Origin: Eledone cirrhosa | Lineage: Eukaryota | Assembly (NCBI GenBank): GCA_964016885.1 | Contig: OZ024741.1 | Span: forward strand, 77,190,001-77,254,000 | Direction of reading: 5' to 3' | Length of the DNA stretch: 64,000 nucleotides | In this document: positions 51,335 through 61,802 of the stretch, piece by piece | Numbering within the stretch: the first letter of the stretch is position 1 | How the letters are laid out: each line of letters opens with the position of its first letter | Program-made: the position numbers and the translations under genes | Notes under the pieces: model-generated | What the model was told of the DNA's origin: nothing | Databases searched by the model: none | The model's input: the letters and a program-made list of their open reading frames with translations, nothing else

Positions 51335-51385
51335 AGATTCCTGATGATTTCTAATGAATGAAACAGTTCTAGTCCTGTAGAATCT
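51335..51385 (+). ncRNA. Type I hammerhead ribozyme motif
   Basis: AGATTC-CTGATGA-t(ttc taat gaa)t-GAAA-CAG ttctagtc CTG-TA-GAATCT. Stem I is 6 bp, the predicted cleavage is after GUA (51379), and (TA)n flanks both sides. Confidence 0.8.
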
Positions 51386-51428
51386 TATCTATATATATAT
51401 ATATATATATATATATATATATATATAT

Positions 51429-51607
51429 ACGATATATTAACAAATGGAAACTATATTTATAAAACCATATTTATTTCATTATAGATATTTCAAGACACCA
51501 AGTTAAATTATGGTGTGCTTTCATCAGATAAAATGGTGTCCTTGAAATATGTATAATGAAATAAATATGGTTTTATAAATATAGTTTCCATTTGATAATA
51601 TATCGTA
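51429..51607. repeat. Inverted repeat with ~72-bp arms enclosing a hammerhead
   Basis: 51429-51500 is the near-perfect reverse complement of 51534-51607. Confidence 0.9.
51474..51533 (-). ncRNA. Minimal type I hammerhead ribozyme motif
   Basis: Minus strand: TTTTAT-CTGATGA-AAGcACACCA...TGGTGTCTT-GAAA-TATCTA-TA-ATGAAA. Confidence 0.75.
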
Positions 51608-52129
51608 TTTTTACTCCAATAATTTGTTGAGTGCTTTATATCAGTTATAAAAATATTTGCTTGTTGTATCCCAACAATTTAAATAGAACTACTACTACAC
51701 ACACACACACACACACACACACACACACACACACACACACATATATATATATATATATATATATATATATATATATATATATATATATATATATATATAT
51801 ATATATATATATATATATATTAGATTATGCAAGAAATGCTTAGGGTTATCCTGAATGCAGTAATGGTTAATTACTACACTAGATAGAGTTGACGTACGGT
51901 GAGGGGTTACTCAACAAGTTATGGAAGAATAGTCAGAAAAATTCAGTTTCTGATCCTTCTGTATTCCGGAGTGTAGATAAAGAATGAATAATAACAGGTA
52001 GACATCATAAAAAGGTAATTTATTCCGAGTGCTTACAAATGTTTCAACAGTAGTTATACAGCCTCGTCATGCTATGTGCAATTGATAATTAATAATTATT
52101 TGATTGCACAACGAAGCATACAAAGTAGT

Positions 52130-53950
52130 GAAGAATCTCAAGATAGACGATAGAACCGAGCCGATTATACCCGCAACCCCCACCTTTCACCTGAAGGACC
52201 ATAAGGTAAATTTTGACTCTAACCCTAACATTAGACTTATATGCCCTTCTAAATCAGACATGAAAAATTAGCAACATATACTTGACAGGGTAATAACTCA
52301 ATTGAAAAAGAAAATAGAAATTAAATTATGGGGCAATTCGCTGGTTTAATAACGTTAAGAATATGAGTAAGTCTAAGTTTATACAATTCGACATTGACGA
52401 ATACTACTCTTCAATCTCGCCCAGTACTTTACGTAAGGCCCTATCGTTTGCCAAAGTTAATTCCGACCTAACAGAGGACGAAATCAATATTATTCTAGAG
52501 GCTAGGAAAACTATTATCAAGTTTGATAACTGCTACTGGGAACGTAGGGACAGACCCACAGACTTCGACACACCATGGGCTGTAACGACTCAGCGGAGGT
52601 CACGGATCTTGTGGGAATTTACATAGCCCACATACTACATGGAACATTTAGTAATCTACAGGGGTGAATATATAGAGATGACGCGCTTTTATTAGTTAAT
52701 AACTTAAATAACCAAAATCTTGAAAGGCTACGGAAAAACATTAGAAATTCTTTTAGTGAACTGGGTTTAAAAATAACGTACGAATACAATCTTAAAGTGG
52801 TAAATTTCCTTGACGTAACTCTTAATTTGAATACTGGACTGATACGACTCTTCCACAAGATAAATGAAACCTTACCTATATTAATTTTAATTCGAATCAC
52901 CCACTTTCCATGATCAAATCGGTTCCCCGTAGTATTTCTCTCAGAATCTCTCGCCTATCGTCTAACTCTGAGATTTTCAGTGAACATGCTGAATACTATA
53001 ATAACGCATTAAGGAATGCAGACCACCGTGATAAAATAGAATACATTGATAAGAATCTCCATAACACACATAGCTCCACACGCAATCAAAGAATATATAA
53101 CAGGGGTACAGAAATACAAGCGCACACATACAGTACCACCAGACATACTAATAGAAAATCATCACCAAATAAATCACGTTGTAGAAAGTATATCTGGTAT
53201 AATCCCATTTTTAATGCTTCGATTAGTACAAAACTATCTCTTTCATTCTTTAAGTTAATTAACAAGCATTTCCCTAGTTCCCATAAATACAGTAAGATTC
53301 TAAACTCTAAGACTATTAAGCTATCATACTCCACCGCACCAAACCTTGAAGCATACATAAAAAACTTAACTTAAAGCAATTATTAAACAACACTACAAAA
53401 CAAAATATTTTAGTAACAGATGAGCATAACGAAATATCGGCCTCCCAACCACCAAATGGGAGGCGGGTATTACACAACCCATTTGAACTGTTATCCCAAC
53501 CTATCCATGGTATACCTGCTACCCACAACAAAAACTGCAACTGCCACCTACCCGAAAGATGCCCATTGAAGAATAAATGCCTAGAGTCCAACATTGTTTA
53601 TCAATGCACCGTTGAATCGAACGACCAGAAATGGTATTACATTGGGTCTACTACTGCCTCCTTTAAATCTCGCTGGTATCGTCATCGATTTTCGATTAAG
53701 CATCCTAAACACCGTCTTGTGACTACGTTCGCCAATAAGACCTGGCAACATCGAGAATGCAACCGGCAGTTTAGCTTAAAATAGGATAAACTATCCAGTG
53801 CTAGTGCATATCGGAGTGGATTGAAGTACTGCAGATTATGCAACCTTGAACTCTTTTATATCTTAAAATCCAAAAACAAATTACTAAATAACAGAATCGA
53901 ACGATCGTTATACTGCAACCACAAACTGAAGGCTAAATTCTCTCACTATA
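52130..53950 (+). mobile_element. Penelope-like element (Naiad-like), degenerate RT plus GIY-YIG endonuclease
   Basis: Motifs LKDHK.NF...P.IRLI.PSKSD, FIQFDIDEYYSSI, IYRDD, VNFLDVTLNL, YIWYNP.F, IKLSYSTAPNL, CNC..PERCPL...CL..NIVYQC, YYIGST..FKSRW..H and C.LC.LE..LLN.R.E...C.HK. Confidence 0.85.
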
Positions 53951-54351
53951 AAATAACTTAACATTTGAACCCGAGACTGCAACATCGCTTTCTCGCTAGC
54001 TAATTCCTCTCAATAACTACTTCCTAATTATATCCCTCACCCCCACACTACAAGCCAATACCCTGCTTATCATTATAAATGGGTACTTGAGTGCGATTTG
54101 CAGACTATCTATCTCTCTTTCTTTCTCTCCCCCGCCCTCTCTCTCTCTCGCCCTCGGTCTACTACACTCCCTCTCCACATCTATGAACCTGCTCTCTGTG
54201 GCAATAAATAATCCCAATCTTGACCACATCAACACAATGCCTAAGCGCTATCACCTTGAGAATAAACAGTAAAATAAAACCCCTACCACAACATTTTGAT
54301 TAAGCTATCTGTATTCTTCAAACCACTCTCTACCACTTCTCCAACCCCTAC

Positions 54352-54485
54352 ATCTCTCTCTCTCTCTCTCTCTCTCTCTCTCTCTCTCTCTCTCTCTCTC
54401 TATATATATATATATATATATATATATATATATATATATATATATATATATATATATATATATATATATATATATATATATATAT
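54352..54485. repeat. (TC)n(TA)n compound microsatellite
   Basis: Read directly from the sequence. Confidence 0.95.
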
Positions 54486-59094: not shown

Positions 59095-59273
59095 GGAGCC
59101 CCTACATGGACACACTAGAAGAGGAAGACCAAGGTTAACATATGTTGATGCCCTAAGGACAGACACTGGTCTGTTGGAGACGCAGGATATGGCAGCGATA
59201 ATGAGGGACAGAGACCGCTGAAGAGAACTCGTCCATGGATCTCGGGAATTTTACCCGCCTTAGATAGATAGAT
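59095..59273 (+). mobile_element. RTE-clade LINE 3' end with (TAGA)n tail
   Basis: Translates EPLHGHTRRGRPRLTYVDALRTDTGL...MRDRDR and ends cttagatagatagat. Confidence 0.75.
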
Positions 59274-59890
59274 ATAATATATATATAACATATATATAAT
59301 ATATATATAATATATATATAATATATATATAATATATATATAATATATATATATATAATATATATATATAATATATATATAATATATATATATATATATA
59401 TAATATATATATAATATATATATAATTTATATATAATATATATATATATATATAATATATATATATATAATATATATATAATATATATATATATATATAT
59501 ATATAATATATATATAATATATATATATATATATATATATATATATATATATATATATATATATATATATATATATATATATAATATATATATAATATAT
59601 ATATATAATATATATATAATATATATAATATATATATATATAATATATATCTAATATATATATATATATATATATATATATATATATATATATATAATAT
59701 ATATATATATAATATATATATAATATATATATATATTATATATATATATATATATATATATATATATATATATATATATAATATATATATAATATATATA
59801 TAATATATATAATATATATATATATAAATATATATATAATATATATATATATATATAATATATATATAATATATATATAATATATATATA
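59274..59890. repeat. Interrupted (TA)n/(TATAA) array (similar arrays at 58916-59094, 60907-61700 and 62702-62837)
   Basis: Read directly from the sequence. Confidence 0.95.
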
Positions 59891-60267
59891 TGTCTAAAGC
59901 GGGTAAAATTCCCGAGATCCATGGGCGAGTTCTCTCCAGCGGTCTCTGTCCCCCATCATCGCTGCCATGTCCTGCGTCTCCAACAGACCAGTGTCTGTCC
60001 TTGCATCAACATACGTAAACCTTGGTCTTCCTCTTCTAGTGTGTCTATGTAGGGGCTCCCAAAGGAGACTTGGACACTGACCAAGAAACTCACTCAGATG
60101 GTGGATGGGTGCTACACGAGAATGCTGAGGATGGCTCTGAACATTAATCAGTATGCACTGAGTATGAAAAACTCAGAGCTGTATGGGAGCATCCCAAAAG
60201 TCAGCTCAAAAGTGACACAGAGGAGATTGAGGTTAGCTGGACATGCTCACCGACATCCAGAGGTTGA
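59891..60267 (-). mobile_element. RTE-clade LINE 3' end with an inverted 5' segment
   Basis: 59891-60063 is the reverse complement of the 59095 copy. 60064-60267 on the + strand encodes the upstream part ETWTLTKKL...LRLAGHAHRHPE. Confidence 0.78.
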
Positions 60268-60282
60268 TATATATATATATAT

Positions 60283-60872
60283 ATATATATTGGTTAACGG
60301 AATAGAAAATGCTGACAAATTGTTCACAGTTGAAAAATGGTTTAATTAGGAATAAAAGAGTATTAGTGATTGTATGGGTTAGTATTCAGTTGTGGTTTTA
60401 AGTTTTTAAGTTTTTACCGGTTGCGCATTTCTAAATGCTTTTCAAAAATAATTTTGAGATAGAGTGTCCGTGCTGTTTGCTCTGATCAGAGCAAACAGCA
60501 CGGACACTCTATCTTACTCTTAATATTGTTTCTACTTTAGGCACAAGGCCAGCAAATTACCCAGTGCATTACTGGTACTTTATTTTATCGACCCCGTAAG
60601 GATGAAAGGCAAAGTCAACCTCGGCGGGATTTGAACTCCTTAATATTATTGATATTATACTTCAGAAGAAACTGTTGAGTGCTTCCAGCTGTTACAAACT
60701 AAATTTGTTGAATAATCAACAAATTAAATGCGCAACCGGTAAAAACTTAAAAACTTAAAACCACAACTGAATACTAACCCATACAATCACTAATACTCTT
60801 TTATTCCTAATTAAACCATTTTTCAACTGTGAACAATTTGTCAGCATTTTCTATTCCGTTTACCAATATATA
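60283..60872. repeat. Foldback element with ~148-bp inverted arms (60283-60430, 60726-60872)
   Basis: The arms are near-perfect reverse complements. The spacer holds a perfect 58-bp palindrome (60457-60514) and a SINE fragment (60520-60638). Confidence 0.9.
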
Positions 60873-61731
60873 ATAACTTGTGTGTTACACCTCTATTCTT
60901 TTAACTATATATATATATATATATATATATATATATATATATATATATATATATATATATATATATATATATATATATATATATATATTATATATATATA
61001 TATAATATATATAATATATATATAATATATATATAATATATATATAATATATATATGATATATATATAATATATATATAATATATATATAATATATATAT
61101 AATATATATATAATATATATATATATATATATATAATATATATATATATATATAATATATATATATATATATAATATATATATCATATATATATATATAT
61201 AATATATATATTATATATATATATATAATATATATATTATATATATATATATTATATATATATATATAATATATATATTATATATATATAATATATATAT
61301 TATATATATATAATATATATATATAATATATATATATATATATAATATATATATATATATATAATATATATATATATAATATATATATATATAATATATA
61401 TATATATAATATATATATATATATATATATATATATAATATATATATAATATATATATATATATAATATATATATAATATATATATATATATAATATATA
61501 TATATATATATAATATATATATATATAATATATATATATATATAATATATATATATATAATATAAATATATATATATATATATAATATATATATATAATA
61601 TATATATATATAATATATATATATATATATAATATAATATATATATATATAATATATATATAATATATATATATATATATATATATATATATATATATAT
61701 AAGATCAAAAGATGGTTAAATGAGTTCCATG

Positions 61732-61802
61732 TATTTTATTATGCGCATTTCAAAAACAAATATCATCATGCAATAACATTTGTGTTTTCATCAGATAAAA
61801 TA
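61732..61802 (-). ncRNA. Minimal type I hammerhead ribozyme motif (paralogue of 54705-54771)
   Basis: Minus strand: TATTTTAT-CTGATGA-(stem II)-GAAA-TGCGCA-TA-ATAAAATA, with an 8-bp stem I. Confidence 0.85.

Follow-up and report, generated by a model that had tools for sequence, protein, structure and literature searches.

Predicted hammerhead ribozymes among (TA)n tracts of Eledone cirrhosa: probable 3' pseudo-LTR ends of truncated Hydra-clade Penelope-like elements

Introduction

Hammerhead ribozymes are known from several kinds of Penelope-like elements (PLEs), the closest to the present case being those of the Hydra clade (Craig et al. 2021, PMC8557442). Here we consider a 64,000-nucleotide (nt) stretch of the Eledone cirrhosa genome (contig OZ024741.1, positions 77,190,001 to 77,254,000; hereafter the window), in which five hammerheads had been predicted among (TA)n tracts (the original prediction). 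These predicted hammerheads are very probably the 3' ends, that is, the pseudo-long terminal repeats (pLTRs), of 5'-truncated copies of several Hydra-clade families, clustered by way of the (TA)n tracts, the likely target of the endonuclease. Hydra elements with hammerheads have already been published from octopus (PMC8557442) and this is no new system.

As described in section 11 and the supplement of that paper, Hydra elements, including Hydra-1_Obim from Octopus bimaculoides, possess one open reading frame (ORF) of ~700 amino acids (aa) with RW(K/R/T) (RWK-type) and DKT (for DKG) motifs, a CxCx5C linker, and, at the C-terminus, a GIY-YIG endonuclease with CxxC and CxH and without CCHH. They carry a type I hammerhead in the pLTR, prefer (TA)n for insertion, and display inverted 5' pieces and a tail at one end. 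The elements considered here resemble them in these traits. Unlike the reported units of <3 kb, however, those in Eledone measure 3.7 kb (family 3) and 6.0 kb (family 1), because their 3' untranslated regions (UTRs) are 0.9–3.7 kb long, that of family 1 being largely alternating CA/TA. Tail lengths differ by 70–95 nt as against 30–40 nt, and the hammerheads are unlike that given for Hydra-1_oBim, one family having a U4A core and the motif copies numbering ~55,000 (compared with PMC8557442).

The minimal PLE hammerheads of Cervera and de la Pena (2014, PMC4209133), which are reported to cleave weakly and as dimers, are also of type I with an unpaired base after A9 and a small palindromic helix III, and likewise occur mostly as single dispersed motifs of truncated PLEs with some opposite-strand pairs. 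Unlike them, helix II reaches 15 bp in our family 3, and in families 1 and 5 a monomer can close helix III by itself; the counts given below exceed the ~9,000 for Xenopus (PMC4209133), though counting methods differ. In PAc, a Poseidon element from the green anole (Frangieh et al. 2024, PMC11167929), both strands are cut, reverse transcriptase (RT) starts from two internal sites past the hammerhead, which gives the tail, uncut RNA is used, and the hammerhead is assisted by protein. The Eledone copies similarly read through the hammerhead, and by analogy with Poseidon the cutting of both strands and the two start points may apply to them as well. Poseidon belongs to another clade, however, and its ORF overlaps the hammerhead, whereas that of family 1 starts ~135 nt past the cut site.

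Non-LTR retrozymes (Li et al. 2026, 10.64898/2026.07.22.740005) have the type I hammerhead and pLTR ancestry in common with these families, but consist of tandem non-coding monomers, unlike the single or head-to-head ends of coding elements found here. The window contains no tandem non-coding monomers, and among the matches listed neighbours were mostly opposite-strand pairs or kilobases apart, no genome-wide tandem search having been run. Naiads share the (TA)n preference, pLTRs and inversions, but are described as having an N-terminal endonuclease and no canonical hammerhead (PMC8557442), the opposite of the arrangement here. A 2026 repeat annotation of Octopus (PMC13282606) counts Penelope-like families, the passages concerned naming neither Hydra nor ribozymes. 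Literature searches retrieved neither these families, their copy numbers, the long UTRs and the fixed U4A core, nor bench studies of the Hydra clade; among the papers listed and in the text of section 8 of PMC3088659 no published natural U4A hammerhead core was found. The present analysis identifies the islands and corrects their clade from Naiad-like to Hydra.

Hammerhead motifs

A structure-aware scan of the whole window, based upon the core CUGANGA, GAAA, a UH site and closable stems I–III in type I order, returned exactly five motifs:

51335 hammerhead (family 1), plus strand: core start 51341, last base before predicted cut 51379
51474 hammerhead (family 2), minus strand: core start 51527, last base before predicted cut 51480
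54.7 kb hammerhead (family 3), minus strand: core start 54765, last base before predicted cut 54711
56037 hammerhead (family 4), minus strand: core start 56086, last base before predicted cut 56048
61.7 kb hammerhead (family 3), minus strand: core start 61794, last base before predicted cut 61740

These are the five complete-core type I hammerheads of the original prediction. In 200 dinucleotide shuffles of the whole window the mean was 0.035 motifs and the maximum 1, and in 200 of the microsatellite-stripped 50.5–64 kb region the mean was 0.01, again with a maximum of 1. The bare core pattern alone, with 9 matches versus 4.5 expected, is not significant. The original list had overlooked two further motifs which appeared on allowing one core change; both bear the core CAGAAGA (U4-to-A; family 5) and lie at 55803 (+) and 62903 (−). 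Seven motifs occur within 12 kb of the window and none in its first 50 kb, which holds mostly ORFs of the long interspersed element (LINE) type.

Several details of the original prediction were confirmed while others needed amendment. Helix II of the 54.7 and 61.7 kb copies is the same 12 bp, with U-G/A-U in one and U-A/G-U in the other, so that, as stated, the differences between the paralogues keep pairing via G-U. The 51335 island (51335–51389) was rightly described as essentially ribozyme only, for it contains the motif plus 10 nt and nothing else; the 56037 motif, which terminates a 2.9-kb element, is on the other hand not a short non-coding island. Stem III had been called tiny, and palindromic in the 54.7/61.7 kb pair: the palindrome is there, but stem III of 51335 has 4 bp and an 8-nt loop. 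The stems are closable as claimed for the motifs in general, but not stem III of the 51474 copy, which is broken by one change (UAUCUA), 1 of only 4 broken among the 125 motifs compared below. Finally, the motifs had been placed in four unrelated families; families 2 and 3 are kin, since the 51474 and 54.7/61.7 kb motifs have stem I and the stem III register in common.

The 125 motifs were chosen by stem I and core only, pairing in stem III not being demanded by the search. The six bases after GAAA were UGCGCA in 59, UAUGUA in 51 and UAUAUA in 10, and the hexamer was self-complementary in 121; AUGCGCAU self-pairing amounts to −10.5 kcal/mol. This self-complementary covariation supports folding as a dimer, in agreement with the dimer-type stem III that had been proposed.

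Among tail-anchored copies the core was intact in 164 of 185, and substitutions affected 27/2029 core (1.3%) versus 356/7895 non-core positions (4.5%), in a sample partly biased by the inclusion of neighbours of pattern-picked loci. Absence of core conservation among paralogues had been named beforehand as an argument against ribozymes; overall the core is the better conserved, with family 4 showing no difference. This is a weak test, as young dead copies are alike everywhere, and the conservation agrees with selection operating on source elements, not on the copies they insert.

Parent elements and clade

Every hammerhead family can be linked through its sequence to a predicted RT/GIY-YIG ORF, family 2 through inverted copies. 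Genomic loci are given L numbers below, and the first 30 pattern matches per family (n=150) are called unbiased copies. In family 1 locus L177 an intact 713-aa ORF stands between two hammerheads 5,966 nt apart, and in 3/30 unbiased copies the ORF comes after the hammerhead tail. In family 3 L110 displays the order hammerhead–ORF–hammerhead with 3,655 nt between the hammerheads and the ORF in two frames, and a sense GIY-YIG lies upstream in 5/30 unbiased copies. In these two loci the hammerhead resides in pLTRs on both sides of the ORF; in the other families only the 3' hammerhead is colinear with an ORF, family 2 being linked via inverted copies only. The window sequence 55993–58913 (family 4) matches L097 at 97% and the same colinear order recurs in L092 and L094, which shows that the 56037 motif and the GIY-YIG at 58.2 kb form one element with a 2.1-kb UTR. 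In family 5 GIY-YIG ends ~930 nt upstream of the hammerhead in L146, L160, L162 and L182 (933 nt in L182). For family 2, an inverted RT-thumb/CxCx5C/GIY-YIG piece in L109 runs into a UTR matching the sense UTR of L198 (78% over 1,130 nt, reaching 124 nt from the core), and the pair L213/L212 likewise combines an inverted GIY-YIG piece with a UTR match (85% over 481 nt).

The derivation of the hammerheads from pLTRs of PLEs, as originally put forward, is thereby upheld by pLTR–ORF–pLTR order in L177 and L110 and by colinearity in families 1, 3, 4 and 5; the links of the islands to PLE ORFs which had been suggested as a check are also present, those of family 2 via inversions. The proposal of a separate non-autonomous class did not hold, as 5' ends are scattered and long copies reach the ORF of their own family (30 copies per family). 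As to the 52.1 and 58.2 kb ORFs as mobilisers, the latter stands as cis parent of the 56037 motif only, while the 52.1 kb element belongs to a sixth family, 17/19 relatives of which carry their own hammerhead-like motif downstream, a weak one in which stem I begins with a U-U pair.

All linked ORFs have RT first and GIY-YIG at the C-terminus, without an N-terminal endonuclease, and in families 1, 2, 3, 4, 5 and 6 a CxCx5C linker precedes GIY-YIG. The three N-termini covered contain RWR/DKT (family 1), RWT/DKT (family 3), and RWR and DKT (family 4). The endonuclease is devoid of CCHH and possesses CxxC and CxH around conserved E and N residues (alignment A1). Atlas neighbours (score 0.96–0.99) are ~700-aa animal proteins, some of their clusters having GIY-YIG and RVT_1. 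By these motifs the families are assigned to the Hydra clade. The ORFs at 52.1 and 58.2 kb, taken as Naiad-like in the original prediction, have the endonuclease C-terminal behind the CxCx5C linker, which is the Hydra layout. The distances between hammerheads in L110 and L177 exceed the <3 kb mentioned for Hydra, a figure which is a general description and not diagnostic.

The 3' UTRs of family 1 (L177 412–4062; L175 4271–6924) are 2.7–3.7 kb long and 62–71% alternating CA/TA; in L177 2,592 of 3,650 nt are alternating purine-pyrimidine. Given such long low-complexity UTRs, the family 1 element itself may spread microsatellite-like DNA. At least 10 further hammerhead families were met incidentally in the sampled loci (e.g. 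L075, L105, L124, L127, L088), including one, a common family, whose stem III is CUAG (34 matches), and others with U3-A8 cores.

Copy number

Exact matches to patterns of 27–35 nt were counted across the 3.0-Gb genome, the reversed-pattern controls giving 0. The counts were 12,882 for family 1 (35-mer), 9,186 for family 2 (27-mer), 12,127 for family 3 (31-mer), 711 for family 4 (35-mer) and 19,717 for family 5, the most abundant. Their sum, 54,623 or one per 55 kb, is a lower bound. From this genome-wide abundance we conclude that the cluster in the window is a local pile-up in a TA-rich stretch or TA hotspot. Copies within families are 92–100% alike. As a resource, the five young families with their motif copies, at least 54,623, are joined by the intact 713-aa Hydra element with both pLTRs, and the natural series of hammerheads (palindromic, monomer-closable, U4A) with its clear insertion anatomy makes the function of Penelope hammerheads testable.

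Insertion anatomy and proposed mechanism

Among the unbiased copies 5' ends are spread from 1 nt to >1.4 kb upstream of the core. The 5' junctions (n=150) are with an inverted same-family piece in 67, with a TA run in 20 and with other sequence in 47, a further 16 running off the locus end; 5'-truncated hammerhead-bearing copies are often inverted. Hotspots occur in family 1 close to the core and in family 3 at 65–70 nt upstream (12/30), each at a small palindrome. That stubs are halted by the hammerhead fold was considered and rejected, as the hotspot lies at stem I in family 1 but 65–70 nt upstream in family 3.

The 3' ends are far more regular. A (TA)5 run lies <=260 nt from the cut site in 135/145 copies, each family showing two or three fixed distances. 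Past the cut site, the ends abutting the TA run are found at ~10/21/89 nt in family 1, 50/140 in family 2, 44/133 in family 3, ~48/146 in family 4 and 25/115 in family 5. Head-to-head pairs of families 1, 3, 4 and 5 combine one long and one short tail in 21/22 cases, a count without the read-through 5' pLTR pairs L136/L137 and L230/L231 and without two family 2 pairs, for which the long-tail tag was too loose (30/30) and which are both long/short by eye. In family 4 there are only 2 long tails among 30 copies, both within head-to-head pairs. The rule also holds in the window for the family 2 island and the 62.8 kb insertion of family 5. At 55161–55163 the 5' side of a long-tailed family 3 end meets that of a short-tailed family 5 end, a single base separating the two; TA runs are present at the outer ends only, again in keeping with the long/short rule. 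A deletion between two insertions could also produce this single case. Joins between families were rejected as a general feature, the 3/150 flagged copies being low-complexity matches, and the window join stands alone. Since genomic copies read through the predicted cut site, the template RNA was uncut or religated.

We would picture the process as follows. A tandem pLTR–ORF–pLTR locus would be transcribed and the protein would cut a TA tract on both strands. RT would then begin within the RNA a short way downstream of the hammerhead, from the far site on one strand and the near site on the other. Most cDNAs would terminate prematurely or turn back on themselves at short palindromes; the resulting stubs would always contain the hammerhead because it lies in the first part copied. 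The hammerhead likely trims multimeric transcripts slowly, either as a dimer that pairs through stem III, which is self-complementary, or assisted by the protein. Selection on it would operate in source elements, the stubs in the window being likely inert, and later insertions would reuse the same TA tracts. The clustering of the hammerheads is attributed to the copies sitting in (TA)n tracts.

A more far-reaching idea, which we advance tentatively and with some doubt, is that every Hydra insertion results from two RT events, one at either end of a (TA)n double-strand break, which start at different fixed sites and give one long and one short tail, possibly with RNAs of different families, as the family 3/family 5 join at 55161–55163 would exemplify. 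The hammerhead would then be mainly a landmark next to these sites, allowing the most successful family (~20,000 copies) to fix a U4A core.

Alternative explanations

Several observations weigh against attributing the motifs to Hydra-clade ends. An Rfam scan, whose hammerhead model had been recommended in the original prediction, yielded 57 matches at E<=1, none of them a hammerhead. Folding energies are mostly not better than those of shuffles (z +0.38 to −1.89 across the five motifs), and the hammerhead is the minimum-energy fold for 51335 only, lying 1.3–2.6 kcal/mol above the best fold in the other motifs. The core of family 4 (3/220) is no better kept than its other positions (4/720). No sense ORF was found within 1.5 kb in any of the 30 unbiased copies of family 2, and the start of 13/30 family 1 matches lies no more than 14 nt from the core, so that a self-propagating mini-element could be concealed among them. 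With regard to the protein, Pfam gave no match to the intact 713-aa ORF and weak GIY-YIG matches (E 2e-4 to 3e-3) to three other frames, a PDB search with the intact ORF gave no useful match, and assignment to the Hydra clade is by motifs rather than by a tree with named Hydra proteins. The Rfam and folding results are what one might expect of chance motifs in AT-rich DNA. Against that stand the five motifs versus a maximum of 1 in 200 shuffles, the fixed place in the pLTRs that bound full elements on either side and the stem III covariation, and chance is exceedingly improbable. Nor is there more than the slimmest likelihood that proteins of Naiad type, with their N-terminal endonuclease, moved the elements: Naiads too prefer (TA)n and Octopus remnants are listed (PMC8557442), but every linked ORF is ordered RT first and GIY-YIG last with CxCx5C, Naiads lack canonical hammerheads, and cephalopod Naiads are reported as long inactivated (PMC8557442) as against the close likeness of the copies here.

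The shortest islands, those of families 1 and 2, might instead be self-propagating non-autonomous elements or retrozymes, transcribed from their stubs and mobilised in trans by Penelope proteins. The short family 1 copies, the 65–70 nt hotspot of family 3 and family 2, which extends <260 nt upstream in 26/30 copies with the sense ORF not found in these, would agree with this, as would the report of animal retrozymes as pLTR derivatives (10.64898/2026.07.22.740005). Tandem monomer arrays were not found in the window or the sampled copies, however, junctions vary from copy to copy and lie at small palindromes of the parent, both tail ends of the stubs are common to long copies, and all families are linked to an ORF; we therefore think such mini-elements very unlikely. 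A view which accepts the same origin, but in which the hammerhead no longer needs to cut and acts in folded form as a landmark to which protein binds next to the RT start sites, deserves more attention, although we find it rather improbable. The most abundant family, 5, has A at core position 4 in 100/100 of the matches listed, the pattern having left this position free; the family 6 motif with its U-U pair is weak, and hammerhead mutants had no effect on in vitro insertion by the anole Poseidon (PMC11167929). Yet the other core bases, the UH site and a dimer-compatible stem III are kept across families, and the Poseidon motif does cut with protein (PMC11167929).

Other features of the window

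On the reading of the islands as 3' ends of Hydra-clade copies, the window is divided as follows:

51335–51389, plus strand: family 1 stub between TA runs, cut back to stem I; hammerhead plus 10 nt
51427–51534, minus strand: family 2, 3' end with short tail and hammerhead, one change disrupting stem III
51534–51695, plus strand: family 2 inverted long-tailed 3' end, truncated within stem II
51820–52108, minus strand: family 6 inverted long tail, own pLTR of the 52.1 kb element, starting just 3' of the family 6 hammerhead-like motif
52106–54352, plus strand: family 6 element, 5'-truncated; stop- and frameshift-ridden RT, CxCx5C, GIY-YIG ORF to ~53961, then start of the 3' UTR
54579–55161, minus strand: family 3 long-tailed 3' end with hammerhead; palindromic stem III
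55163–55864, plus strand: family 5 short-tailed 3' end, variant core CAGAAGA at 55803, predicted cut after 55843
56000–58913, minus strand: family 4, single 5'-truncated element; linker and GIY-YIG end (stop 58202), 2.1-kb 3' UTR, hammerhead, 48-nt tail
61702–62171, minus strand: family 3, 3' end with short tail and hammerhead; core 61794, predicted cut 61740
62838–62921, minus strand: family 5 short-tailed inverted end, variant core 62903; compared with L105

The two family 2 pieces (51427–51534 and 51534–51695) form one head-to-head insertion. The family 6 copy at 52106–54352 is missing its 3' hammerhead end in the window. At 52100–52111 this 52.1 kb element's inverted tail starts immediately past the family 6 motif's putative UC cut site; there is also a 5-nt overlap with the ORF, so that the coincidence with the cut site may be due to chance. 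The family 4 element has a (CA)/(TA) tract inside its 2.1-kb 3' UTR. The plus-strand arm of the last family 5 insertion (62919–64000) continues, by comparison with L105, to a long-tailed end just past the window edge.

The region 60291–60865 holds another TA-inserted palindromic repeat, with a 58-nt perfect palindrome (60457–60514) and 140-nt inverted arms; a hammerhead core was absent in 11 matched copies. Inside it, at 60520–60640, is a common repeat resembling a short interspersed element. Two inverted copies of a LINE-like ORF 3' end (59095–59263 and 59894–60262) flank a long TA tract. Non-LTR retrotransposon ORFs (RVT_1, Exo_endo_phos, zf-RVT) are densely packed in 1158–40564, with a minus-strand orientation up to 11.6 kb and a plus-strand one from 16 kb onwards, and 41200–43400 is occupied by a tandem array with a 31-nt unit.

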